Positions 860-62,073 of a stretch of DNA of 64,000 nt are shown here, one piece after another (within the stretch, counting starts at the first letter, position 1; each line of letters opens with the position of its first letter). The notes under the pieces were generated by a model that made no database searches, had not been told where the DNA came from, and was given only the letters and a program-made list of their open reading frames with translations. Origin of the DNA: Candidatus Pacearchaeota archaeon (lineage in GTDB: Archaea; Nanobdellota; Nanobdellia; Pacearchaeales; GW2011-AR1); the NCBI GenBank assembly GCA_023144035.1, contig JAGLGM010000003.1:15876-79875 (forward strand). Reading direction: 5' to 3'. The translations under genes and the position numbers were made by a program.

Positions 860-874
860 TCTCCCAGGGTTATA
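860..874. repeat. attL-like 15-bp direct repeat
   Basis: Exact match to 9051-9065. Confidence 0.55.
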
Positions 875-905
875 TGTTTTACTTTAAAACTCTATGAATA
901 TAATA

Positions 906-1145
906 TTATTTTTCGTTATTTTTTAACGTAATTAACCTCCTTCTAATTGTATGTTTTTGACCAAATAAATCGAATGTATACTCTTTTTTAACATCATCTG
1001 GAAACGCCTTTTCTAATTTTGCTTGAATCCATTTACCTAATGGTGCAATTAACTTATTTCTAAAATCTTCTAAATCTACATCTTTAAAATCTTTATCGGA
1101 TAAAAATTCAATTTCAATTCTATATGCTTTTGTTTTATTTTTCAT
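906..1145 (-). CDS. Hypothetical small protein, possible partner of the upstream RHH protein; start at 1145 (MKNKTKAYRIEIEF...) or 1163
   Basis: ORF track 906..1163. The internal ATG at 1145 overlaps the TGA of the upstream small ORF as ATGA (translational coupling). Confidence 0.45.
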   Translation of the reverse strand: MKNKTKAYRIEIEFLSDKDFKDVDLEDFRNKLIAPLGKWIQAKLEKAFPDDVKKEYTFDLFGQKHTIRRRLITLKNNEK

Positions 1146-1279
1146 TTTTGTTTCTTCTTCCAAAAATCTATTAATCTTACAACAACATCATCATATGTTT
1201 CTCTTCTAGATTGTTTCAACTTATCTAATTTTATTTTAGTTTTCTCTTCTAAACCGACTAACTTAAGTGGTTTTTTCAT
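1142..1279 (-). CDS. Ribbon-helix-helix (CopG/Arc-like) small DNA-binding protein, 45 aa
   Basis: Hand translation MKKPLKLVGLEEKTKIKLDKLKQSRRETYDDVVVRLIDFWKKKQK* gives a beta-strand then two helices typical of RHH. Below the ORF-track size cutoff. Confidence 0.4.
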   Translation of the reverse strand: MKKPLKLVGLEEKTKIKLDKLKQSRRETYDDVVVRLIDFWKKKQK

Positions 1280-1320
1280 ATATTTTAATAGATTTTAATG
1301 TATTTAAATCTTTATATGAT

Positions 1321-1468
1321 ATAGAATGTGTGTTTTTCCGTCGCTGTTATATAAAATAGATTATATATAATTTATTATAAGAGTGTTTATATACGATAAA
1401 ACATTAAAATATATATAAGTCAAAAAAATAAGATAACTAAATGTCCATTTTGCGACGCTGTTTATAAT
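1321..1468. promoter_or_regulatory. Iteron-like repeated motif cg(t/a)cgctgtt(t)ata(t)aaat upstream of the Rep operon; possible origin or operator
   Basis: tttccgtcgctgttatataaaat (about 1326-1348) and ttttgcgacgctgtttataataaat (about 1447-1471) in an AT-rich spacer. Confidence 0.3.
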
Positions 1469-1540
1469 AAATTGAAAGACTTCTGATAGATAATAAATAC
1501 CTTTGATATTTTACAGAATTGAAAAAGGAGGTAAAAGAAG

Positions 1541-1747
1541 ATGGACATAAAACAAATAAAAAAATATGAAAATAAAAAAGTAAGAGTATTTCTTAATACT
1601 AACGATTATACTTATATTCTTGATAGTTTACAAATTATTGACGATGAAGTAGAAGGATTTGATATTAAAAATAGGAAGATAACATTATCTCCTGAAATAA
1701 TTATAGGGATTATTCCATTATCGGGAATAAGCGATGGTCAACACTGA
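1541..1747 (+). CDS. Hypothetical protein (element)
   Basis: ORF track. Overlaps Rep start by 14 nt. N-terminus (KQIKKY) echoes the N-terminus of the next ORF (EQIKKY). Confidence 0.4.
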   Translation: MDIKQIKKYENKKVRVFLNTNDYTYILDSLQIIDDEVEGFDIKNRKITLSPEIIIGIIPLSGISDGQH

Positions 1748-3320
1748 ACAAATTAAAAAGTATGGATCTCTTAATGAAATTGAAAGAGTTATTTATAAAA
1801 TACAGGAAAGAGGATATGAAGATTCTAATAAAAAAGAACATGAGTGGGATTTCTTTAGTGATGCTGGATTAAATGACGAAGTAATATTTGATAAATTTTC
1901 TATTAGTTCAAATATTACTGATAATGAAAGAAAAACATTTTTCAATCTTAAACAAGAAGACCAATATAAATTTATAGATAATGCTCGACAATGTTTTTGT
2001 GAAAAAAATGGAAAATATAGTGAATATTTATTAATGAAACAAAGAGAAGAATTAGAAAAAAATAATTTAATTGTTCCTGAAGAAATAAAAAATATTGAGG
2101 AATTTATACAAAATAATTCAGTTAGTAAATTGAAAAGGATGAAAGATAAAATTTTAATTGATATATCTAATATAGATGATGAAGTTACACAAACTTATTT
2201 TATTAGAATGTTAGCTGAAAAGACAAAATTAGTATATAAATCATTATATAAAAAAATAATTGAATTAAAAGATGAATATAAAGTGAGAGTTACAACATCT
2301 GTATCTGATTTATTAGGTATGAATGTTCCAGAAGTAGATTATTATATTGAAAATTTAATTCCAAAAGGATGTTTAATTTTATTCGGTGGAAAACCAGGAC
2401 AAGCTAAAAGTTTAACAACTCAGCATATGTTTTTGAGTTTATTTACAGATAGTTATTTAGATAAGTTTAAAGTAAATAATAACAATAACAATATAAAATT
2501 ATTAGTATATGATTTAGAAAATAATTTAGAACATGTTTTAGCGCCAAGACTTCAATATATTGCTAAAGGTTTAGGATTAACACAAGACGATTTAAAAGAT
2601 AAATTTGATGTTTATGCTGATTTTAATAAGAATAATATGAAATTTGAACTAGAAAGAACTAAAGATTTTGATATAATTATCTTTGATAGTTATAAGAGAT
2701 TTTTAAGAGGAACTGAAAATGATTCTACAGTAACAGATAAATTTTATCAAGAATTCTTGAAACCTTTAACAGATGCAGGAAAAACAATAGTAATAATTCA
2801 TCATTTTAAGAAATCTAATATGGAAGACTTAAGTGAAGAGTTTTTATTAGATTTGTTTCGTGGTTCATCAGATATTGCTTCACAAATTGATTTAGGTTTT
2901 GGAGTATTTAGAACTCCAGAAATTATTAGTGATGATTGTAAAACTACTAGATTTGAAACTTTTATTACTAAAATTAAAAATCGGAGAGGTTTGCCTGTTA
3001 AATCTTTTACATATAAAGTATTAAAAGATGATAATGAAAAGAAAACTACATTTGAATTTGGTGAATTTGGACATATTACATCACCAAAAGAAAGAAATAA
3101 GATATTAATTTGTAAGTTTATTGAAAGTAAAAATGATAAAGTTCCAAGACAGAATATAATTGATTATATGAAAAATGAAACTAATGGTCAGTTATCAGAT
3201 ATATCTGTCATTAATTATTTAAAGGAATTAGTTTCGGAACAGATATTAAGTCAACCGAACCATGGATTTTACAAGTCAAAACAATTTCAGAACATAGAGT
3301 TGGAAGAGGTAAAGAAGTAG
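1734..3320 (+). CDS. RecA-like P-loop NTPase, replication-associated (DnaB/RepA-like helicase of mobile elements)
   Basis: Walker A GGKPGQAKS, Walker B IIIFDSY; element context. Confidence 0.6.
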   Translation: MVNTEQIKKYGSLNEIERVIYKIQERGYEDSNKKEHEWDFFSDAGLNDEVIFDKFSISSNITDNERKTFFNLKQEDQYKFIDNARQCFCEKNGKYSEYLLMKQREELEKNNLIVPEEIKNIEEFIQNNSVSKLKRMKDKILIDISNIDDEVTQTYFIRMLAEKTKLVYKSLYKKIIELKDEYKVRVTTSVSDLLGMNVPEVDYYIENLIPKGCLILFGGKPGQAKSLTTQHMFLSLFTDSYLDKFKVNNNNNNIKLLVYDLENNLEHVLAPRLQYIAKGLGLTQDDLKDKFDVYADFNKNNMKFELERTKDFDIIIFDSYKRFLRGTENDSTVTDKFYQEFLKPLTDAGKTIVIIHHFKKSNMEDLSEEFLLDLFRGSSDIASQIDLGFGVFRTPEIISDDCKTTRFETFITKIKNRRGLPVKSFTYKVLKDDNEKKTTFEFGEFGHITSPKERNKILICKFIESKNDKVPRQNIIDYMKNETNGQLSDISVINYLKELVSEQILSQPNHGFYKSKQFQNIELEEVKK

Positions 3321-3535
3321 TATAATATGTCTATATTATATATATTTATTATTTTATTTATATTTTATATATAATTAGAATCAAACATATAGAGAATCTA
3401 TATAATATAGGCAATGTGTTGGCGCAAAAAACAATCTAATAGGTGGTTAAAACGCAGAAATTCAACTAAAAACTAAAAATATATTTTAATATATTTATAT
3501 AAATAAAAAGGGAATAGAGTATTTAAATTTTTAAA

Positions 3536-3772
3536 ATGGAAGAAAAAAAGAAAATATCGACAACATTCGCGAGAATTGGAAGTATGGGTAAATCAAAAAT
3601 AATTACAATCCCAAAATCTATAAAAGATATGAATGCAGGGGACGAAGTTTTAATTATCAAAATGAATATGGAATTAATTGACTATCTTAAAAAATTAGTT
3701 GAAAAAGATTTTGTCAAACATAATATAAAACTTGAGTGGATTGATTATTTAAGGCGAAAAAGATTTAGTTAA
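3536..3772 (+). CDS. AbrB/SpoVT/MazE-type swapped-hairpin DNA-binding protein
   Basis: RIGSMGKSKIITIPKSIKDMNAGDEVLI motif. Confidence 0.5.
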   Translation: MEEKKKISTTFARIGSMGKSKIITIPKSIKDMNAGDEVLIIKMNMELIDYLKKLVEKDFVKHNIKLEWIDYLRRKRFS

Positions 3773-4329
3773 TACCCAACAGCTTCCACACCATATTCGG
3801 CTTGCTCTCTTGTAAACCCCCCATATTCTAATTGTTCAATTAATCCCTCTCGTGAAAATGGCATAATATCTAAATAAGATTGAGCCGTTAATGTAGCTTG
3901 TTCATTCCAATCAGCCCCACAATTATCTACTCCATATAATGCTTGTTCATGAGTGTATCCCTCATATTCTAATTGTTCAATTAATCCATTATAAGAGAAA
4001 GACATAACGTTCAGATAAGATAATGCACTGTCCAATGCATTCTTTTCACCTATTGTTGTTTCATCAGATTCTTTTACAGCTGGTGTTGTTGTTTGTGTTG
4101 GTGTTGTTGTTTGAGTATTTGAATTATCTGTTGATACAAGATTTTCTGAATTATAATTATCTGAAATTGTATTGGTCTCTTGGGTTTCCTCTTCAAAAGT
4201 CTTCACAACATTAGCAGTTTGAGAAAATGAATCAGATATAACATTGACTACACCCAAAAACATGAAACCTACAATTACCCAAAACCACCATTTTTGATAG
4301 AAGGTTTTATCCTTTTTTTGTTTTTCCAT
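3769..4329 (-). CDS. Ltp-family (prophage superinfection-exclusion lipoprotein-like) membrane protein with two Ltp repeats
   Basis: N-terminal TM helix, Thr/Pro-rich linker (TQTTTPTQTTTP), then two repeats: SALSYLNVMSFSYNGLIEQLEYEGYTHEQALYGVDNCGADWNEQA and AQSYLDIMPFSREGLIEQLEYGGFTREQAEYGVEA. Confidence 0.6.
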   Translation of the reverse strand: MEKQKKDKTFYQKWWFWVIVGFMFLGVVNVISDSFSQTANVVKTFEEETQETNTISDNYNSENLVSTDNSNTQTTTPTQTTTPAVKESDETTIGEKNALDSALSYLNVMSFSYNGLIEQLEYEGYTHEQALYGVDNCGADWNEQATLTAQSYLDIMPFSREGLIEQLEYGGFTREQAEYGVEAVGY

Positions 4330-4330
4330 T

Positions 4331-4882
4331 TTAATAATAATTTACCTCAATTTCATCTTCTCCATATCCTGTAATAATGCAATCAGATATTTTTTTATCA
4401 GATTCTTTAATATAAATTTCTATAATGGCTTTAGTTAATTCATAATCTTCTAATCCATTTTCATTTACTTCAACATCTTCTACTTTTTCCCCTTCTTCAT
4501 CTTTTACTGTAAATTCCATTTCATTCCATTCTTCAACTAAATTGTTAAAATCTTCTGACGCAGTATCATTAAAACCTAATGAAGCCACCCCACACATTAT
4601 CTCAGTCATTAATTCAGTCGCATCTCCAAAAAAATCATTATAAATTATTTCTTCTTCAAAATAAAGTCTCATATCCAGTGAAACTTCTTTTGTTAATGAA
4701 TTTTTAGTAAGGATCACTGTACTATTTTCATCCGAGTATTCTATAATTTCTATGTTAGATTTATTTGATTGTTTATTAAACAAGAAAAAAGATAAAACTA
4801 TAATCAAAATAATAACTGCAACTCCTCCTATGATTAAACTTTTATTTTTTATATTTAATTTAGATGTCATTAATTGCCCCAA
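4331..4882 (-). CDS. Membrane-anchored hypothetical protein (N-terminal TM, acidic C-terminal domain)
   Basis: ORF track; hydrophobic segment IIGGVAVIILIIVLSFFLF. Confidence 0.45.
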   Translation of the reverse strand: MGQLMTSKLNIKNKSLIIGGVAVIILIIVLSFFLFNKQSNKSNIEIIEYSDENSTVILTKNSLTKEVSLDMRLYFEEEIIYNDFFGDATELMTEIMCGVASLGFNDTASEDFNNLVEEWNEMEFTVKDEEGEKVEDVEVNENGLEDYELTKAIIEIYIKESDKKISDCIITGYGEDEIEVNYY

Positions 4883-5631
4883 TTCTTAATCAAACCTTTA
4901 GGAAGATTTTCAATAAAAGTAACAATTTTATCAACAATAGATTCGAGCCAAGAAGTTCTATTTTCTAATTCTACATTTTGTTCTTCTAATTCTTCAACTT
5001 TTTGTTCAAGTTCAGCAACTCTTAATTCTAATTCGTTTGGTTGTGGAGGTTCTTCAGATTCTTCTTGTTCTGTGCAAATTATAAAATTATCATAATCCAT
5101 ATGACCTATTCCATTATGACCAAAAACTGTACCAATATAAACTTCATGTTCAACATTATTATTTATTGTATGTGTAGTTACTTCATTAAATGTGATTTGT
5201 CCTTCTCCAAATTCTATTTTATTATGATATTTTTCAAAAGGACGACAAACTCCATCCCAACATCCTCCTAATCCAAATCGGTATTGATTATCCACTAAGA
5301 ACATATTCACTGAATTTCCTTCTGCATAAATAAAATTAATATCATATTCCAACATATCTCCTGCTTTGAATTTATATTTTGGGACTAAATATGTTCTATG
5401 GTCTCCGAGAATTGAATCCTGTCTTGTATGAAAATTTTCTAAATCAGCATCTAATCCAGAATCAGCTATAAATGGTTGTCCTTCATAATCTTTCCTAATT
5501 TCCCATTTACTTGTATCTAAAGTATCAGATGAAAAATCATCATAAACTTCACAAACTTGCACAGCACTAATTAAACTAATCAATAAAATTGGTAGAATTA
5601 AAGTTAATACAATTTTGCTCTGTTTTCTCAT
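4870..5631 (-). CDS. Secreted hypothetical protein with signal peptide and C-terminal coiled coil
   Basis: N-terminal signal KIVLTLILPILLISLISA; heptad-like ELELRVAELEQKVEELEEQNVELENR. Confidence 0.45.
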   Translation of the reverse strand: MRKQSKIVLTLILPILLISLISAVQVCEVYDDFSSDTLDTSKWEIRKDYEGQPFIADSGLDADLENFHTRQDSILGDHRTYLVPKYKFKAGDMLEYDINFIYAEGNSVNMFLVDNQYRFGLGGCWDGVCRPFEKYHNKIEFGEGQITFNEVTTHTINNNVEHEVYIGTVFGHNGIGHMDYDNFIICTEQEESEEPPQPNELELRVAELEQKVEELEEQNVELENRTSWLESIVDKIVTFIENLPKGLIKNWGN

Positions 5632-5703
5632 GTATTTATATTTTATTTAGATTATTTAAATCTTTTTATCTGTTACGCTTCTGTCACTCTTTCTTTTTAA
5701 GAA

Positions 5704-5943
5704 TTGTTACGCTATTGTTTCATGAAAAAAGAGTTAAAATTGGAGATATTCTTAAAGAAAAGTGAATTAAGAAGAAATGTTTGGAAACAATTAGATAAAT
5801 CAAAAACTGCTTCTGAAATTTCTAACGAAGTAGATAAGCATAGAAGTGCTGTAAGCAGAGTTCTTTTAGACATGCAAAAAGCAGGATTTGTGAAATGTAT
5901 TAATCCAGAAGATAAGAGTTTCAGGTGTTATGTGAAGAGATAG
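5704..5943 (+). CDS. Winged-helix transcription regulator (ArsR/MarR-like); start may be the internal MKKELK
   Basis: TASEISNEVDKHRSAVSRVLLDMQKAGFV HTH. Confidence 0.5.
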   Translation: MLRYCFMKKELKLEIFLKKSELRRNVWKQLDKSKTASEISNEVDKHRSAVSRVLLDMQKAGFVKCINPEDKSFRCYVKR

Positions 5944-6135
5944 AAAAATTACAAATAATAGAGCTTTTATTTTGTTATAATTTTCCCTCTATAAAAACAC
6001 CAAAAAACAGGCAAATACTTGATATAACGAGAGAAAAAGAGGTTACCTATACTATTTATCAACTAAGAGAAGTTGTTATGTTTTTAGAGTTGTTATATAA
6101 TTATAAAAATTGTACTTTAATAGTTATTTTAGAAA

Positions 6136-6495
6136 ATGGCAAATGAAACTAAGGCAATTAAAAATATAAAAGTAACAAAAAGGGAATGGAATAATGTTGG
6201 AAACCTTATTGATTTCTTAAAATTTAGATATAAAAAGGAAGATGATTTTGTTAAATGGTTAATAGGAATCGCTTTAGTATTTTTATTTTCTTCTAGTGTG
6301 ACAAATGTTCTAGAGAGTCAAACAGATTGGATTAGAACCACTGGAGTTGTTATTTTTATTGCTTCTATAGTATTTATTGTTCTATTACTTATTATTCAAC
6401 ATTATATTGATAAAGCTCAAATAGAAGTTATGAAATATCTCTACAAACAAAAAGATAAAAAGAAAAAGGTAAAAGGAAAAACTAAGAAGAAATAG
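6136..6495 (+). CDS. Small membrane protein with Lys-rich tail
   Basis: Two hydrophobic helices, KKKKVKGKTKKK tail. Confidence 0.4.
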   Translation: MANETKAIKNIKVTKREWNNVGNLIDFLKFRYKKEDDFVKWLIGIALVFLFSSSVTNVLESQTDWIRTTGVVIFIASIVFIVLLLIIQHYIDKAQIEVMKYLYKQKDKKKKVKGKTKKK

Positions 6496-6709
6496 AAAAT
6501 TAATGACCTATTGGGCCCCTGAATATTTCTTTAAACATTAATATCAAAAAAGTTAATAATATTGCCGAAAAAATTATCTCAAACCATTTTCTCTTTATAA
6601 ATTTTAAAAACTTATTCATAAAGATTCTACGAATTTATTATATTTAAATATGGGCGTTTCTAAAAAGAAAAGTATAAAATTGTTGGATTCTTAATTATCT
6701 TGATTAAAA

Positions 6710-7726
6710 ATGCCTAGTTTTGAAGAAATATTTGGATTAGCAACATATTTGAAAGAAATAGAAAATTTAAAAATTAATTTAAGAGTTAATTTTAATGGAG
6801 TATTATTAACTGCTTTGTATTTTAAAAATAAGTCTGAAGAAAAAGAAAGAAAAGATAAATTTTTTAATAGAAATAAAGAGATAATTGAAGAAATAAATAA
6901 AGAGATAAATAAATTTAATTTAAAATTAAAGGAAAAATACAAGTTTTTGCCTCTAAAGTCTCTTGAAATAATTAATCTTGAATATATTAAAAAAATAATT
7001 TATGAACATCAAGGAAAAGATTCAACTTCAAGAAAATACACTCTTCTCCAACTAAATAATTGTTTATTAGATTTTGAAAATTCGATTAAGAATTTTCTTG
7101 ACTCCTTTGAAATCCAATTGATACCATTTAAAGGGAGAGACGTTACAGATTTTCTTAATGAAGAAAATGGAATAATGGTAAAAGAAGCTTTTGATATTTA
7201 TAGTATTGGATATTTCGGAACTGCTGTTTTCTTAATGGGAAAATGTCTTGAAAAAAACATCACAGATTTTCTTAAAAAGAATGTTAATAAAAATAAAATA
7301 AAATATCCTTTAAATGAAATTGAGAAATGTACTTTCCATCAAAAAATAAACATCTTAAAAAATGAAACTTTTATTTCTGAATCAGATTATTCTAAGATTA
7401 TGTCTATCAAATGGGAGAGAAATATTGCAGTTCATCCTTCTAAAAAAGAAGAAATAGAAAAATTGATGGCAGATTCTAGTGGGACAATAACTCTCTGTAT
7501 TAATCAGATTATTAATTTCCAAAAGAAAATAGAAGAAGTGAAAAGTGAGGCTGAAATCCAAGAAGAAAAAGCAAGAGAATTGCTTGGGGGAACGTCGGGA
7601 GGAGGAATTCCAATATTATATGGAAAAACTCCAGAAGAAAATTTAGAATTGCTTAAAAGCTATGGTGGGAAAAGAATAGAAGAAATGAGGGAAAAATTAA
7701 GAAAAGAAATTGAAGAAACAAAATAA
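6710..7726 (+). CDS. Hypothetical protein with HEPN-like Rx4H motif (possible RNase / abortive-infection-type)
   Basis: KWERNIAVHP (R-x4-H) in the C-terminal half; coiled-coil-rich; adjacent to integrase. Confidence 0.4.
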   Translation: MPSFEEIFGLATYLKEIENLKINLRVNFNGVLLTALYFKNKSEEKERKDKFFNRNKEIIEEINKEINKFNLKLKEKYKFLPLKSLEIINLEYIKKIIYEHQGKDSTSRKYTLLQLNNCLLDFENSIKNFLDSFEIQLIPFKGRDVTDFLNEENGIMVKEAFDIYSIGYFGTAVFLMGKCLEKNITDFLKKNVNKNKIKYPLNEIEKCTFHQKINILKNETFISESDYSKIMSIKWERNIAVHPSKKEEIEKLMADSSGTITLCINQIINFQKKIEEVKSEAEIQEEKARELLGGTSGGGIPILYGKTPEENLELLKSYGGKRIEEMREKLRKEIEETK

Positions 7727-7739
7727 AAAATAAATTTGT

Positions 7740-8900
7740 TTATACCCCTAACTGACTTTCAATACTCTCTAAGATTTCACCTTCTTCTGTGATTTCAAAG
7801 ACTTCTGGATTTTCCTTCATTCTTCTATGTAATTTTTCATTAAACTTTATAATATCTCTTATTTTTTCTTCAAACCTTTTCTCCATATCTTCCATCTTGA
7901 TTTCTAACTCATGCTTTTTTTCTTCCGAGATTTCTTCAACATGATACACTTGTGATAAAACTGCATCACGCATATCATCATTATCTATATGAGTGTATCT
8001 TGCACCAATATTTGAATTTGGTGAATGTCCTGAAAACTTTTTTGCTAATGGGTTCGAAATTGTCTTATACATTTGAGTTAACTTTGTATGTCTAAATAGA
8101 TAAGGAAATATCGGTTTAGTTATTCCTGCTTTCTTTCCAAGTTCTTTAAAATACATAGACATGCCTGAACTACTAACTGGCTTACTTCTATTTCTTGGAG
8201 TCGGAAAGATAAAATCATTGTCTGAAACATTGGGAAAAGGAAACTCTTGTTTATATCTCTTCAAATGAATTATAGATTCATTCAAAGGAATTGTTCTTCC
8301 TCTACTTGTTTTAGAACTAAATAAAGACATTTCTTTACTTTCAAGATTTATAGAACTCCATTTTGCTGTTCTAACTTCTTCTGTTCTTGCCCCAGTTTCA
8401 GAAAGTAGACTAATTAATGCCTTATATCTTAGTTTTTCGGCTGTTCTAATTAATAATTCAAGCTCTTCAGCAGTAACTAAACTATTTTTGTTTATTTTTC
8501 TGTCTATCTCTTCTCTCTTTTTCTTAATATCTATTAGTTCTTTAAATCTTGATGACCAATCGTCATAATGAAACTTCAAAAACCTCTTTAGAACCTTCTT
8601 AATATCGTTTTGAGTAGGCACAGATATTGAAGAATTGTTAAGAATTACTAAAAATTCTCTCAAATCTTTTAATTCCAGATTGTAAAGAGATTTTTCCATA
8701 ACATCATAAATTTGATACATTTTCCTTTCAATCATATCAAGAGCGTGTGAACAAGCTGACATGCCACAATAATCTACAAAAGATTCTATAGTTTCTTTAT
8801 CTTTATCAGACATAGATTTACCAATTGTCTCTTTCAGAGTTATAATCTTACCATTAACTCTTCTCTTTTTTAAGTTATAATTTGGAAATTCTTTTTTCAT
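7740..8900 (-). CDS. Tyrosine recombinase / phage-type integrase
   Basis: LLSETGARTEEV (Arg box I), FRHT (box II), GHSPNSNIGARYTHI (catalytic Tyr region). Confidence 0.8.
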   Translation of the reverse strand: MKKEFPNYNLKKRRVNGKIITLKETIGKSMSDKDKETIESFVDYCGMSACSHALDMIERKMYQIYDVMEKSLYNLELKDLREFLVILNNSSISVPTQNDIKKVLKRFLKFHYDDWSSRFKELIDIKKKREEIDRKINKNSLVTAEELELLIRTAEKLRYKALISLLSETGARTEEVRTAKWSSINLESKEMSLFSSKTSRGRTIPLNESIIHLKRYKQEFPFPNVSDNDFIFPTPRNRSKPVSSSGMSMYFKELGKKAGITKPIFPYLFRHTKLTQMYKTISNPLAKKFSGHSPNSNIGARYTHIDNDDMRDAVLSQVYHVEEISEEKKHELEIKMEDMEKRFEEKIRDIIKFNEKLHRRMKENPEVFEITEEGEILESIESQLGV

Positions 8901-9050
8901 TTTATCCTCATTGTTTATTAAAATTTTGAAAAATATTTATTATAAATAAAACGATTTTTTCGTTTAAAAATACATTTAAAATACTTTATAAATAATCTAT
9001 TATATATAATAAATTATAATTCATAGAGTTTTTTAAGTAAATCTTAATAA

Positions 9051-9065
9051 TCTCCCAGGGTTATA
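9051..9065. repeat. attR-like 15-bp direct repeat
   Basis: Exact match to 860-874. Confidence 0.55.
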
Positions 9066-13600: not shown

Positions 13601-13637
13601 ATAAAGCTTAAAAATTAGATATTTCTTGTAATAATAT

Positions 13638-13726
13638 GGATGCGTAAGTTAATGTTAGACTATGTGGCTCCAGAATTTTTAACATGGAGTTACCACAAAG
13701 CGAGGGTTAGATTCCCTCCGTGTCCA
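13638..13726 (+). tRNA. tRNA-Trp (anticodon CCA at 13670-13672) with 18-nt intron (13674-13691) after position 37
   Basis: Acceptor ggatgcg/cgtgtcc (two G-U), discriminator A, D-stem agtt/gact, anticodon stem tgtgg/ccaca, loop ctCCAg, T-arm gaggg-ttagatt-ccctc. Intron atggag pairs with anticodon-loop ctcca (BHB-like). Confidence 0.6.
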
Positions 13727-16236: not shown

Positions 16237-16430
16237 AAATCACAAATAAAACAAAAATAAACAAATTGCTTGAAAAAAATCCTGAAGCAGCTGAAATTTT
16301 ATTTGAAGCTGGTATGGGTTGTGTGGGTTGTTCTATGGCTATGCATGAAACAATTGAACAAGGTTGTTTAGCACATGGAATGACAAAAAAACAAATTGAA
16401 AAATTAATTAAGGAGTTAAATAAGAAATGA
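16233..16430 (+). CDS. DUF1858-type redox disulfide small protein
   Basis: GMGCVGCSMAMHETIEQGCLAHG. Confidence 0.5.
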   Translation: MKITNKTKINKLLEKNPEAAEILFEAGMGCVGCSMAMHETIEQGCLAHGMTKKQIEKLIKELNKK

Positions 16431-18004
16431 TGAAATATTCTAAAAAAGTTATGTGTGAATTTCTCAAACCTAAAAACATGGGAGAAATAAAAAATCCAGA
16501 TGGAGTTGGAAAAATTGGAAATCCTACTTGTTTACTTCCAGATGAAAAAATTTGGTTAAATGAAAGTTTTGAAGCAATTAAAAAAACAAATAAAGGAGAT
16601 ATGGTTTTATCACATGATTCTACTGAAAATAAGATTTTAGGAAAATTTTCTAGAGAATATAAAGGAGAAATAATCAGACTAAAAAATGCGCTTGGGAATA
16701 TTTTTCTTACTCCAGAACATCTTGTTTTTGCAATGCGTATTCCAAAAGGAGATAAATTTAAAAGAAATAAAGGTAAAAAACAATTGATTCCTTCATGGTA
16801 TCATGCTGAATATTTGAAAAAAGGGGACATAATATTATATCCTTTTTCAAGAAAAGAAAAAAATATTAAATATTTGACAATAGATATCCCAAAACCCAAA
16901 TATGATTTTAGGAGCAAAAATATTCCAAGTAAAATCTCTCTTAACATGGATCTTTTGAGGCTTTTTGGTTACTTTCTCTCGGAAGGAAATATTCAAGATA
17001 AACCATCTAAAACATATATTTCTTTTGCGTTGCATATTAAGGAGAAAGAAATTGTCGAAGACATAAGAAAGATTGTTAAAAGATTATTTGATTTAGAAAT
17101 AAAATCCAAAGAAAGAATAAAGGAAAATGGGGTCGTTGTTTATATTTACCATGCTCAATTAGCAAGATGGTTTAAAAAATTATTTGGAAATGGTACTCAA
17201 AATAAATATTTACCTGAATTTATAATGCAATTACCCATATCAAAACAAAAAGCATTGATAAAAGGTTTGTGGAAAGGAGATGGATGCATCAATGTGAATC
17301 GTATTGGACCAAGAGCAGGCTATGTTACAATTTCATATAGATTATCTCAACAAATAAAAATCCTTTTACTAAGGCAAAAAATAATCTCTTCATTTTATAT
17401 TGAAAAAGAAAAAAAATCCAAATGGGCTAATCATAAAGAAGCTTATAGAATTCATGTGGGACAAAGAGATTCTCTAAAAAAATTATGTAAAATTTTAAAT
17501 TTAAAACATTGCTCAAAATCTTATGAGTCTATTAGTTCTTGGATTAACAATAATTTTTTATATACCCCTATAACTAAAATAGAAAGAAAAAATTATAAAG
17601 GAAAAGTATATAATTTAGAAGTTGAAAAGACCCATTCATTTATTTCAGAAAGTTTTTGTCTTCATAATTGTGGCGATGTTATGTGGGTTTATATTAAAGT
17701 TAAAAATGATAAAATTACAAAAATCAAATTTAAAACATTTGGATGTGCTGCTGCAATTGCAACATCTTCTATGGTTACTCAACTTGCTAAAGGAAAAACA
17801 ACTAAAGATGCTAAAAAAATTAAAATAAAAGATGTGGCATCTTCTTTAAAAGGATTACCTCCTCTAAAAATGCATTGTAGTGAACTTGCAACAGATGCTT
17901 TAAAATTAGCAATTAAAGATTATGAAAAAAAGAAAACTAATAAAAAGAAAAATGAAAATAGAACAAAAAGTAAAACAAACTTTGAAAAAGATAAAGTTAA
18001 ATAA
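16427..18004 (+). CDS. iscU: Fe-S cluster scaffold IscU/NifU-N, interrupted by an intein; Lys-rich C-terminal tail overlaps the next gene
   Basis: N-extein YSKKVMCEFLKPKNMGEIKNPDGVGKIGNPT; C-extein CGDVMWVYIKVKNDKITKIKFKTFGCAAAIATSSM…LPPLKMHCSELATDALKLAIKDY. Confidence 0.8.
   Translation: MMKYSKKVMCEFLKPKNMGEIKNPDGVGKIGNPTCLLPDEKIWLNESFEAIKKTNKGDMVLSHDSTENKILGKFSREYKGEIIRLKNALGNIFLTPEHLVFAMRIPKGDKFKRNKGKKQLIPSWYHAEYLKKGDIILYPFSRKEKNIKYLTIDIPKPKYDFRSKNIPSKISLNMDLLRLFGYFLSEGNIQDKPSKTYISFALHIKEKEIVEDIRKIVKRLFDLEIKSKERIKENGVVVYIYHAQLARWFKKLFGNGTQNKYLPEFIMQLPISKQKALIKGLWKGDGCINVNRIGPRAGYVTISYRLSQQIKILLLRQKIISSFYIEKEKKSKWANHKEAYRIHVGQRDSLKKLCKILNLKHCSKSYESISSWINNNFLYTPITKIERKNYKGKVYNLEVEKTHSFISESFCLHNCGDVMWVYIKVKNDKITKIKFKTFGCAAAIATSSMVTQLAKGKTTKDAKKIKIKDVASSLKGLPPLKMHCSELATDALKLAIKDYEKKKTNKKKNENRTKSKTNFEKDKVK
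16529..17668 (+). other. Intein (380 aa) with LAGLIDADG homing-endonuclease domain, inserted in IscU between GNPT and CGD
   Basis: Starts CLLPDEKIWLN (block A), LTPEHLVFA (block B TxxH), LFGYFLSEGNI and LIKGLWKGDGC (LAGLIDADG blocks). Ends …VYNLEVEKTHSFISESFCLHN followed by extein Cys. Confidence 0.75.
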
Positions 18005-29003: not shown

Positions 29004-29171
29004 ATAAAAATCGTTATTTTTTAAGATTATAAAGATAATTATGCTGAAGAATAATTTTATAAAGCAAATTCCTCTAAATTAATCATGGCTCTGTAGCTTC
29101 CCAAGGGATGACTTACATTTTATGTAAGCCTCAGCCTCTAAGTTGCTTCGCACTCGCCATAAACAAAATAC

Positions 29172-29264
29172 GGCTCCGTAGCTCAGCCTGGCAGAGCACT
29201 GGACTTTTAGTTGGTAAAACAAGAAGTTATCCAGGTGTCGAGGGTTCAAATCCCCCCGGGGCCA
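29172..29264 (+). tRNA. tRNA-Lys (anticodon TTT at 29206-29208) with 19-nt intron (about 29210/11 to 29228/29)
   Basis: Acceptor ggctccg/cggggcc, discriminator A, D-arm gctc-agcctggca-gagc, anticodon stem ctgga/tccag, loop cTTTTag, T-arm gaggg-ttcaaat-ccccc (one A-C mismatch). Intron aagaagt pairs with actttt. Confidence 0.7.
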
Positions 29265-29319
29265 TTTTTCTAAACAAAAATCTATTAAAGGAATTTTCAC
29301 CCCAAGGGGTTTCCCAATA

Positions 29320-29391
29320 GGATGACTCTGGTGAGCCTTCCACAAAGGATGACTCTGGTGAGCCTTCCTCACAGGATGACTCTGGTGAGCC
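29320..29391. repeat. 27-nt tandem repeat, 2.7 copies (ggatgactctggtgagccttcc-caca-)
   Basis: ggat starts at 29320, 29347, 29374; copies differ only in the last about 6 nt. Confidence 0.7.
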
Positions 29392-29413
29392 TCAAATCCC
29401 CCCGGGGCCATTT
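29392..29413. repeat. 22-bp exact duplicate of the tRNA-Lys 3' end (tcaaatccccccggggccattt), att-like scar
   Basis: Identical to 29246-29267. Confidence 0.7.
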
Positions 29414-29528
29414 ATCAATTAATAAGGAATTAACAGAAAGATTTAAAAACTAAATTTAAGTATCTTTTATTATTATAAAGTTGTTAAATTGTTAGGTAAA
29501 ACTATGCAATTTCACTTAAAAATCCCTC

Positions 29529-61772: not shown

Positions 61773-61921
61773 TTATATTCTTGCAAAATTTGAACAATTC
61801 CTTATTCAGCCATTGAAAAGCTTTTATTAATAATCTTTAAAATTATACTTCTCAATAAATTCACCCTCTCAAACTTTCTTAATAATTAACCTTAAATACT
61901 ATTAATTTATTCTATAATTAT

Positions 61922-62073
61922 GCCCAGATCGCATAGTGGTTATTGCACCGGATTGCTAAGCACAGGACACCTCAACGGTTTCCTACCGCACTACCTTCCC
62001 TTAATGGATTGTAGAAGTTAACGCAAAGATCCGGACCCTTCGGGGTGCGTAGGTTCGACTCCTACTCTGGGCG
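61922..62073 (+). tRNA. tRNA-Ser (anticodon GCT at 61955-61957) with about 70-nt intron (61960-62029) and long variable arm
   Basis: Acceptor gcccaga/tctgggc, discriminator G, D-loop with GG, anticodon stem ccgga/tccgg, loop ttGCTaa, variable arm acccttcggggtgc, T-arm gtagg-ttcgact-cctac. Intron 3' end gcaa pairs with ttgc (BHB-like). Confidence 0.65.
61964..62004 (+). other. Second copy of the 41-nt element, inside the tRNA-Ser intron
   Basis: See 32997-33037. Confidence 0.5.

Follow-up and report, generated by a model that had tools for sequence, protein, structure and literature searches.

Copies of part of a tRNA beside the gene are a known kind of signature, by which integrated elements are normally recognised. 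Non-autonomous elements are known to accumulate in tandem at a single attachment site, as CIMEs do with ICEs and as in IMEX arrays at dif. Nanoarchaeum equitans is RNase P-free, and tRNA-Lys is a split tRNA in Nanoarchaeum. In archaea, partial tRNA copies arising from the integration of elements are well documented (PMC9897764, PMC3293823), and the att cases bracket integrase-bearing elements of 9-23 kb with repeats of ~44 bp (PMC9897764). The tRNA-Thr of Caldiarchaeum subterraneum has a 5' fragment upstream and gained an intron via an insertion-bearing attP, and Sugahara et al. (2012) propose a route to disrupted and split tRNA genes (PMC3293823). The tRNA-Lys locus described here shows the same signature without an element, on both sides of the gene, in a structured form and across a DPANN clade.

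The tRNA-Lys(UUU) locus

The window, that is the whole 64-kb stretch of DNA that was analysed, has a G+C content of ~27%. Its tRNA-Lys locus lies on the plus strand and is followed, ~270 nt downstream, by the start of the archaeal genes rpoH and rpoB. The functional tRNA-Lys(UUU) gene occupies 29172-29264. The original prediction of a tRNA-Lys(TTT) with an intron was confirmed by an Rfam match (53.5 bits) and by a BHB scan, which placed a canonical 19-nt BHB intron (29210-29228) at position 37/38, between the last exon base at 29209 and exon 2 from 29229, with flanking helices of 5 and 3 bp and the anticodon UUU. ARAGORN detects the gene without being able to name it. Two more intron-containing tRNA genes of the window (13638-13726 and 61922-62073), one of them 152 nt long with a very long insertion, were found by Rfam and not by ARAGORN; neither has end-copies.

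Upstream of the gene, a copy of nucleotides 1-12 of tRNA-Lys (GGCTCTGTAGCT, the 5' pseudo-exon) is present at 29087-29098. This 12-nt copy, overlooked in the original prediction, matches the gene at 11 of 12 positions, with U6 in place of C6, and a search with it gave two matches where 0.02 are expected by chance. A TATA-like box (TTTATAAA, 29056-29063) was read from the sequence 24-31 nt 5' of the fragment, and no comparable TATA-like box stands in front of the complete gene in the window. The fragment is followed by a hairpin cassette (29099-29130) made of TCCCAAGGGATGA, a perfect 7-bp hairpin (arms 29112-29118 and 29122-29128) and CC, in which we recognise the repeat-related word and hairpin previously noticed upstream of the tRNA. 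The remainder of the leader (29131-29171) holds TCAGCCT, which equals tRNA nucleotides 12-18, then AGTTGC (29141-29146) and an A-rich linker. AGTTGC is complementary to GTAGCT of the 5' fragment with two G-U pairs, and in L083 both sides of this pairing have changed in step (GTAACT/AGTTAC).

Downstream of the gene, a trailer with a T5 run (29265-29269) and an A-rich linker was read from the sequence at 29265-29289. The head of the 3' module (29290-29312) consists of GGAATTTTCACCCC, AA and GGGGTTT; GGAATTTTCACCCC is antisense-like to the T arm (GGGGTTCAAATCC), GGGGTTT equals the 5' strand of the T-stem plus UU, and ACCCC and GGGGT form a small hairpin. The 27-nt tandem repeat (29311-29392) corresponds to three hairpin cassettes of the form CCmAnnAGGATGA-CTC-TGGT-GAG-CC. 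TRF gave a period of 27 with 92% matches and 3.0 copies rather than the 2.7 predicted, with units starting at 29311, 29338 and 29365. The 18-mer core of the unit (GGATGACTCTGGTGAGCC) occurs in these three units only in 64 kb, against 0 expected. The 3' pseudo-exon (29392-29413) is an exact copy of tRNA nucleotides 55-73 plus the TTT that follows the gene. The predicted duplicate of the tRNA 3' end is thus exact over 22 nt (29246-29267 = 29392-29413) and holds for 24 of 25 nt when extended, with 0 expected. The non-coding DNA between copy and gene amounts to 73 nt on the 5' side and 127 nt on the 3' side, and no ORF lies between copy and gene. A direct repeat, TAAACAAAA(A)T, also flanks the complete tRNA gene (29160-29171 and 29272-29284) and could be a chance A-rich match or the trace of an insertion of the inner gene.

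An assembly error, considered from the start as a possible cause of the repeats, is excluded because three independent assemblies (ERZ23498471, ERZ23498528, and SRR13892602) agree over every base of the 525-nt intergenic region; a fourth, partial assembly (SRR13892604) has three repeat units as well. In public MAGs, 100-N scaffold gaps fall exactly inside the tRNA-Lys locus (L028, 1992-2091; L041, 1819-1917; L062; L064), where the assemblies are broken by the end-copies and tandem modules. Short-read unitigs of the same organism (the ends of L006, L008 and L009 and the start of L003) stop at tRNA position 38, the exon-intron border, which suggests an intron-less population variant or k-mers in common with the tRNA-Lys(CUU) gene.

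Several other readings of the flanks were tried. As predicted, the ORFs of both strands are spurious. The small ORF MTLVSLPQR x3, which starts from the ATG of GGATGA and has the 27-nt period in frame, was rejected since its frame is not conserved in relatives and is altered by changes in the hairpins. The minus-strand 110-aa ORF (29079-29411) traverses the tRNA and the repeats and has no Pfam family; it has been called protein-coding publicly (L002, 1434-1766) and is a spurious database protein. An Rfam 15 covariance search at E <= 10 matched only the tRNA, all else having E > 0.3. The GGGAUGA-hairpin-CC element could not be read as a K-turn or box C/D motif, because the motif is GGGAUGA...CCNCA, with CA and not GA on the 3' side and no CUGA, and no Rfam C/D match rose above noise. 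A hammerhead-like core (CUGAUGA...GAAA) was rejected as well, the key residues being absent and no Rfam ribozyme matching.

Recurrence in related genomes and structure of the cassettes

Eighty syntenic loci were found via the N-terminus of RpoB (77-92% identity) in MAGs labelled Pacearchaeota, Woesearchaeota or Nanoarchaeota, and a metagenome scan for the 3' arrangement gave eight further AT-rich loci. The counts rest on 64 loci with a complete tRNA-Lys gene, UUU and CUU genes both. Copies of the 5' end, one or two each, are present at 27 of these loci (about 40%) and lie 66-148 nt upstream in most of them and up to about 300 nt where they are stacked. Copies of the 3' end, one to three each, lie downstream at 16 loci (about 25%). 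Nine of the 64 loci have copies on both sides, and about 60% of the relatives have no flank copy. Polarity is strict: the 5' copies are upstream in 31 of 31 cases and the 3' copies downstream in 18 of 18, on the same strand as the gene, and no end-copies were found elsewhere or inverted among the 64 loci. The segments between copy and gene measure ~35-240 nt, most of them <130. The layout recurs in dozens of related genomes and is therefore a lineage-wide feature, not a one-off scar.

The copies follow the gene beside which they stand. Although acceptor/T-stem sequences vary among lineages (GGCTCC, GGCTTC, GGCCTC, GGCTCT, and GGCTTT), 24 of the 31 5' copies and 16 of the 18 3' copies are identical to their own gene. 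Where copy and gene mismatch in the acceptor stem, the Watson-Crick pair is kept by the complete gene in 5 of 6 cases, and the complete (inner) gene is therefore the functional one. Gene content beside tRNA-Lys is variable among relatives, and the neighbouring variable ORFs have no Pfam family or encode ordinary enzymes, with no integrase among them. The tRNA-Lys(CUU) genes of L110/L112 and L118 lie in a different gene neighbourhood and carry the same modules. The 5' module of the window is nearly identical, hairpin excepted, to that of the tRNA-Lys(CUU) gene in L110, where the U6 variant of the window's pseudo-exon is the 5' end of both gene and module. Certain module types keep to one clade, others are scattered patchily; the window and its sister L010 (92% RpoB identity) differ, with type A in the former and type D in the latter. 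Different cassettes, each with its own end-copy, stand in tandem in L062, L042, L116 and L118. In L118, promoter-bearing copies of the 5' half of tRNA-Lys(CUU), the gene and three 3' modules form an array directly behind a 473-aa ORF, the two together occupying 291-1712 and 1790-2520. The 5' half copy reaches the anticodon loop, and the ORF, recognised by eye, is presumably an RtcB-like tRNA ligase.

The 27-mer corresponds to a single ~30-nt cassette, in which T(T)CCCA-n-GGGATGA is followed by a hairpin and CC and which among all sequence examined is confined to tRNA-Lys flanks. It occurs in two contexts only, directly after tRNA position 12 in 5' modules and directly before C56 in 3' modules, and is inserted at a U^CA step in both. 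In the 5' module of L118, tRNA positions 12 to about 36 resume after the cassette, and in 3' modules an antisense-like copy of the T arm and GGGGTTT precede it. Because tRNA segments stand on either side of the cassette, the modules are partial tRNA-Lys copies with an insertion. The word GGGATGA is nearly invariant, and the hairpin arms covary: the 18 instances have 12 different stems between them, and pair 2 is formed by U-A in 9 instances and by C-G in 8. Hairpins with at least 4 bp are formed by 89% of the instances versus 21% when arms are combined across instances, and a double compensatory change separates the close relatives L110 (CTTC/GAAG) and L117 (CCTC/GAGG). The hairpins have triloops rich in U (TTC, TTT, and TAC), so that an appeal to UNCG tetraloops as proof of RNA was wrong. 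Cassettes of the two sides are alike in sense and not complementary, and their hairpins differ within one locus. The triplication in the window, a doubling in L120 and the 124-nt arrays of L118 have the appearance of ordinary slippage products.

Each end-copy is predicted to find its pairing partner inside the module to which it belongs. In the RNAalifold consensus of eight 3' modules, AGGGAU of the cassette pairs with AUCCCU of the 3' copy, and UCC pairs with GGG of the acceptor strand via a conserved U-G wobble. In a second type of 3' module, CAAAUCC of the copy is the predicted partner of the antisense T-arm piece, and compensatory changes are seen at 8 of the 23 predicted pairs. The conserved wobble and other G-U pairs form on the plus strand only. 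A covariance model built from eight other genomes had its sole match in the 64 kb at 29345-29410 (34.9 bits, E 1.9e-6). The folds of the modules are not more stable than those of shuffled sequences (MFE z-scores -1.4 to +0.7), and a global fold of 29087-29413 was uninformative (z = -1.26). The free 5' tail of the precursor (GGCUCYG) is complementary to its free 3' tail (CGGGGCC).

Origin and possible role of the flanks

All three tRNA genes of the window have a TATA-like box at about -30 to -23 of nucleotide 1 (13608-13615, 29056-29063, and 61892-61899), the box of tRNA-Lys preceding the 5' fragment. This is a leaderless-tRNA design like that of N. equitans, and most tRNA-Lys genes of the relatives have a TATA-like box at a comparable position. 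Among module-free genes, 24 of 35 have a TTTWWAW box starting at -38 to -27 of nucleotide 1. At module loci the same box precedes 16 of 25 outermost fragments versus 3 of 25 complete genes. Since the box precedes the fragment rather than the gene, transcription should start at the fragment, and the flanks are very probably co-transcribed with the tRNA-Lys gene. Terminator placement is weak evidence for this: T>=5 follows the last fragment at 5 of 16 loci versus the gene at 1 of 16, in a script count that starts one base past the discriminator, and in the window the T5 run adjoins the gene itself. An amplification of tandem promoters that would boost tRNA-Lys was rejected, a second TATA box before the gene being present at 3 of 25 module loci only.

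We tentatively favour the view that the flanks are by-products of recombination at the ends of the gene, kept identical to it by conversion, co-transcribed with it and paired with their own cassettes. Partial duplication or insertion would have taken place at the ends of tRNA-Lys, with an intact gene regenerated each time, as in att-type recombination; the enzyme could be a site-specific recombinase or the replication and repair machinery, using the U...CA microhomology. On the 3' side the cassette would have been triplicated by slippage, giving the 27-nt repeat. The modules would have been passed on by inheritance and exchanged among Pacearchaeota-like lineages, as well as between UUU and CUU genes, and gene conversion or repeated recombination would keep the copies identical to the resident gene. 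Transcription would then start from the 5' pseudo-exon, and the 85-nt leader and the trailer would fold on themselves, the tRNA-like ends pairing with their own cassettes, which would keep them out of competition with the genuine tRNA. The latter would be freed by RNase P and tRNase Z, and the splicing endonuclease would excise the 19-nt intron, with the flanks taking no part in decoding and having no independent function. Given co-transcription, the pairing of end-copy and cassette would prevent competition, which would explain selection on the stems.

The strict polarity is the pattern expected only if every event preserved an intact gene, and about 60% of the relatives have no flank copy, so the flanks are dispensable. 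Polarity, gene-tracking copies, stacking of cassettes, rapid turnover and dispensability together argue for one origin. The near-identical 5' modules at UUU and CUU genes in different contexts also support the by-product reading, as do the variable gene content beside the tRNA, the predicted pairing of end-copies within their module, the archaeal precedents (PMC3293823, PMC9897764) and an integrated island in the same window. Against it, neither a recombinase nor an element longer than ~240 nt was found between the repeats at about 75 loci, the viral contigs scanned gave no carrier or attP, and the integrase family of the window uses another site (TCTCCCAGGGTT). A length of 12-22 nt is unusually short for gene conversion. 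The compensatory changes in the stems and the near-invariant GGGATGA indicate selection on the cassette itself, and a promoter before the fragment means that the arrangement is not neutral for expression; both speak against the by-product reading.

These last two observations are in keeping with functional leaders and trailers of the pre-tRNA, selected as cis-acting RNA domains specific to tRNA-Lys, an explanation that we regard as rather unlikely but serious. Such domains might mimic and mask the tRNA ends and in this way guide or time folding, 5' and 3' processing or stability, or they might persist as small RNAs. The position of the promoter before the 5' fragment and not the gene, 3' modules that start 2-7 nt from the gene at several loci, the covarying arms (12 stems in 18 instances) with the 8 of 23 compensated pairs of the second 3' type, the wobble and G-U pairs that form on the plus strand only, the near-invariant GGGATGA and the complementary precursor tails all agree with it. 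However, about 60% of the relatives do without a module and only 9 of 64 loci have both sides, several unrelated module types swap between sister lineages, the MFE z-scores are unremarkable and no Rfam family matched, and the T5 run after the window gene means that the repeats are perhaps transcribed by read-through only. It is likewise doubtful, and a little more so, that the tRNA-Lys genes of Pacearchaeota-like DPANN archaea, in which tRNAs otherwise look leaderless, carry undescribed co-transcribed leader/trailer modules that copy the acceptor, D and T ends and mask them by covarying hairpins, and that act as a new cis-acting device in the folding or processing of pre-tRNA or represent living intermediates towards the split tRNA-Lys genes of Nanoarchaeota.

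The original prediction saw in the duplicated 3' end the scar of an integrase. In its classical form, a virus or plasmid would have entered a T-loop-to-3'-end att site of tRNA-Lys and decayed to ~125 nt, the repeats being junk; we consider this improbable. In polarity and extent the 3' duplicate does match a displaced att fragment, since the block of identity runs from the T-loop to the gene end plus 3 nt, an att sublocation that Williams in 2002 (cited in PMC9897764) reportedly described as typical for tyrosine integrases. It is not the remnant of a single decayed element, however, because a copy of the 5' end is present too, the layout is recurrent, and what fills the space is a hairpin cassette, conserved and with compensatory changes. 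Elements decaying independently would not end as identical kinds of short, conserved and covarying cassette in lineage after lineage, on both sides of the gene and at two tRNA-Lys loci, and no remnant of intermediate size was seen among the related loci. No larger element was found at this tRNA in related genomes: in about 75 loci there was no integrase and nothing of kb scale between the repeats, the longest segment being ~240 nt. Scans of IMG/VR with four DNA patterns and the window integrase gave unrelated tRNAs or chance matches and no module-bearing viral contig or attP. On its minus strand, an unrelated viral contig (L090) carries the 3' part of a tRNA twice, at 5792 and 6471 and thus 679 nt apart, a textbook case of att duplication.

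Elements of the classical kind are present in this genome. A tyrosine integrase (Pfam PF00589) is encoded on the minus strand at 7740-8900, next to AAA_25, Ltp-like (lipoprotein) and DUF4145 genes, and a 15-nt direct repeat (TCTCCCAGGGTTATA) at 860-874 and 9051-9065 brackets ~8.2 kb. The region 860-9065 is an integrated element of ~8.2 kb; classical integration therefore occurs in the genome and looks quite different from the tRNA-Lys flanks. Its target (806-880) is a GC-rich hairpin-forming stretch behind a TATA-like box, with the stems GGAGA/UCUCC and CUUCAGAUC/GAUUUGAAG, and the left copy of TCTCCCAGGGTTATA is the 3' end of this stretch. It has no Rfam match and may represent a small RNA gene that lacks annotation, with its 3' end serving as att site. 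The tail of the stretch (GATTTGAAG...CCCAGGGTTATA) loosely recalls the 3'-module head of tRNA-Lys loci. The same core (TCTCCCAGGGTT) recurs on element-like contigs (L209-L213), where it lies 60-110 nt upstream of the genes for homologous integrases. A link between the flanks and this integrase family was rejected, as the att core is absent from tRNA-Lys loci; CCCAAGGGGTTT of the modules resembles it loosely, which is a lead and no more. The window also contains a NifU-like gene into which an intein bearing a LAGLIDADG endonuclease domain is inserted (16427-18004) and, on the minus strand, a DDE transposase (PF01609, 48101-49126) that is probably an IS element.

Another reading would make the outer pieces part of a tRNA. 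That nucleotides 1-12 and 55/56-73 are true exons, spliced to the middle of the inner gene, is very improbable; the tRNA-Lys would then be proto-split or multi-intron, and the lineage one whose tRNA promoters are leaderless. The expected start falls exactly at the 5' fragment, as judged from the TATA at -30 to -23 of the other two tRNA genes, the outer ends could form a 7-bp acceptor stem, and tRNA-Lys is split in Nanoarchaeum. BHB splicing of the flanks was nonetheless rejected after scanning by hand and by script: the canonical intron was found, and there is no credible BHB motif by which 29098 could be joined to the gene or the gene to 29392, the remaining hits having 2-bp helices. No complementary leader and trailer were found between the pieces, the palindromic 4-mer rule required for duplicated exons does not hold, and acceptor pairing is better in the inner copy (5 of 6). 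The RNP form of RNase P is also reported to be near-universal in Archaea (PMC6380272). That the hairpins are folded single-strand DNA sites, integron attC-like or REP-like, on which a recombinase acts is hardly credible: they do vary in sequence while keeping structure and short conserved flanks and do form tandem arrays, and the second module type (GTTTAAC...GTTAGGT), alone, loosely resembles the attC boxes RYYYAAC/GTTRRRY, but these boxes lack conservation, R' often has A in place of its critical G, there are no cassette ORFs and no integron integrase (IntI) nearby, and the G-U asymmetry favours RNA.

Comparison with known systems

In the literature that was searched we found no description of a miniature, element-free, two-sided form of this signature or of its restriction to tRNA-Lys, nor of a dedicated hairpin cassette or of its spread through a DPANN clade. 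If the flanks are by-products of recombination, they would bear witness to a very active process that, on a small scale, remodels the tRNA genes of reduced genomes, and would provide raw material (promoter-bearing 5' halves, 3' pieces, and intron-like inserts) for models of the origin of split and multi-intron tRNAs. If they are functional, they would represent a new kind of pre-tRNA leader and trailer. In practice, such loci break assemblies (100-N gaps), defeat ARAGORN and yield a spurious 110-aa "protein" in public gene calls.

The split and tri-split tRNAs of N. equitans and Caldivirga maquilingensis resemble the present locus in having separate tRNA pieces with their own promoter, and also in the phylum and in the involvement of tRNA-Lys. 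Their halves, however, carry a complementary leader and trailer that form a BHB, and there is no intact gene, whereas here the gene is intact and neither feature was found. The accretion of CIMEs and IMEX shares with this locus the arrays of different cassettes that are bounded by copies of the same site and themselves lack a recombinase; in those systems the elements measure kilobases and have known recombinases, while here the cassettes are short and no recombinase was identified.

Like the tRNA-Thr of Caldiarchaeum, the locus has an upstream 5' fragment and, on one side, a tRNA-like sequence with an extra intron-like insertion. In Caldiarchaeum, unlike here, a 1.8-kb recombinase-encoding insert lies between fragment and gene (PMC3293823), and the functional gene gained a true BHB intron, whereas here the insertion is in the pseudo-copies only and has no BHB. 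With the displaced partial tRNA genes (attL/attR) of other archaea, the locus has in common a truncated end copy in direct orientation beside an intact gene, and a 3' block that runs from the T-loop past the 3' end and is identical or nearly identical to the gene. It differs from them in that the repeats are 12-26 nt long with ~35-240 nt of non-coding DNA between them, in that not one but both gene ends are involved, and in that many genomes have the layout conserved.
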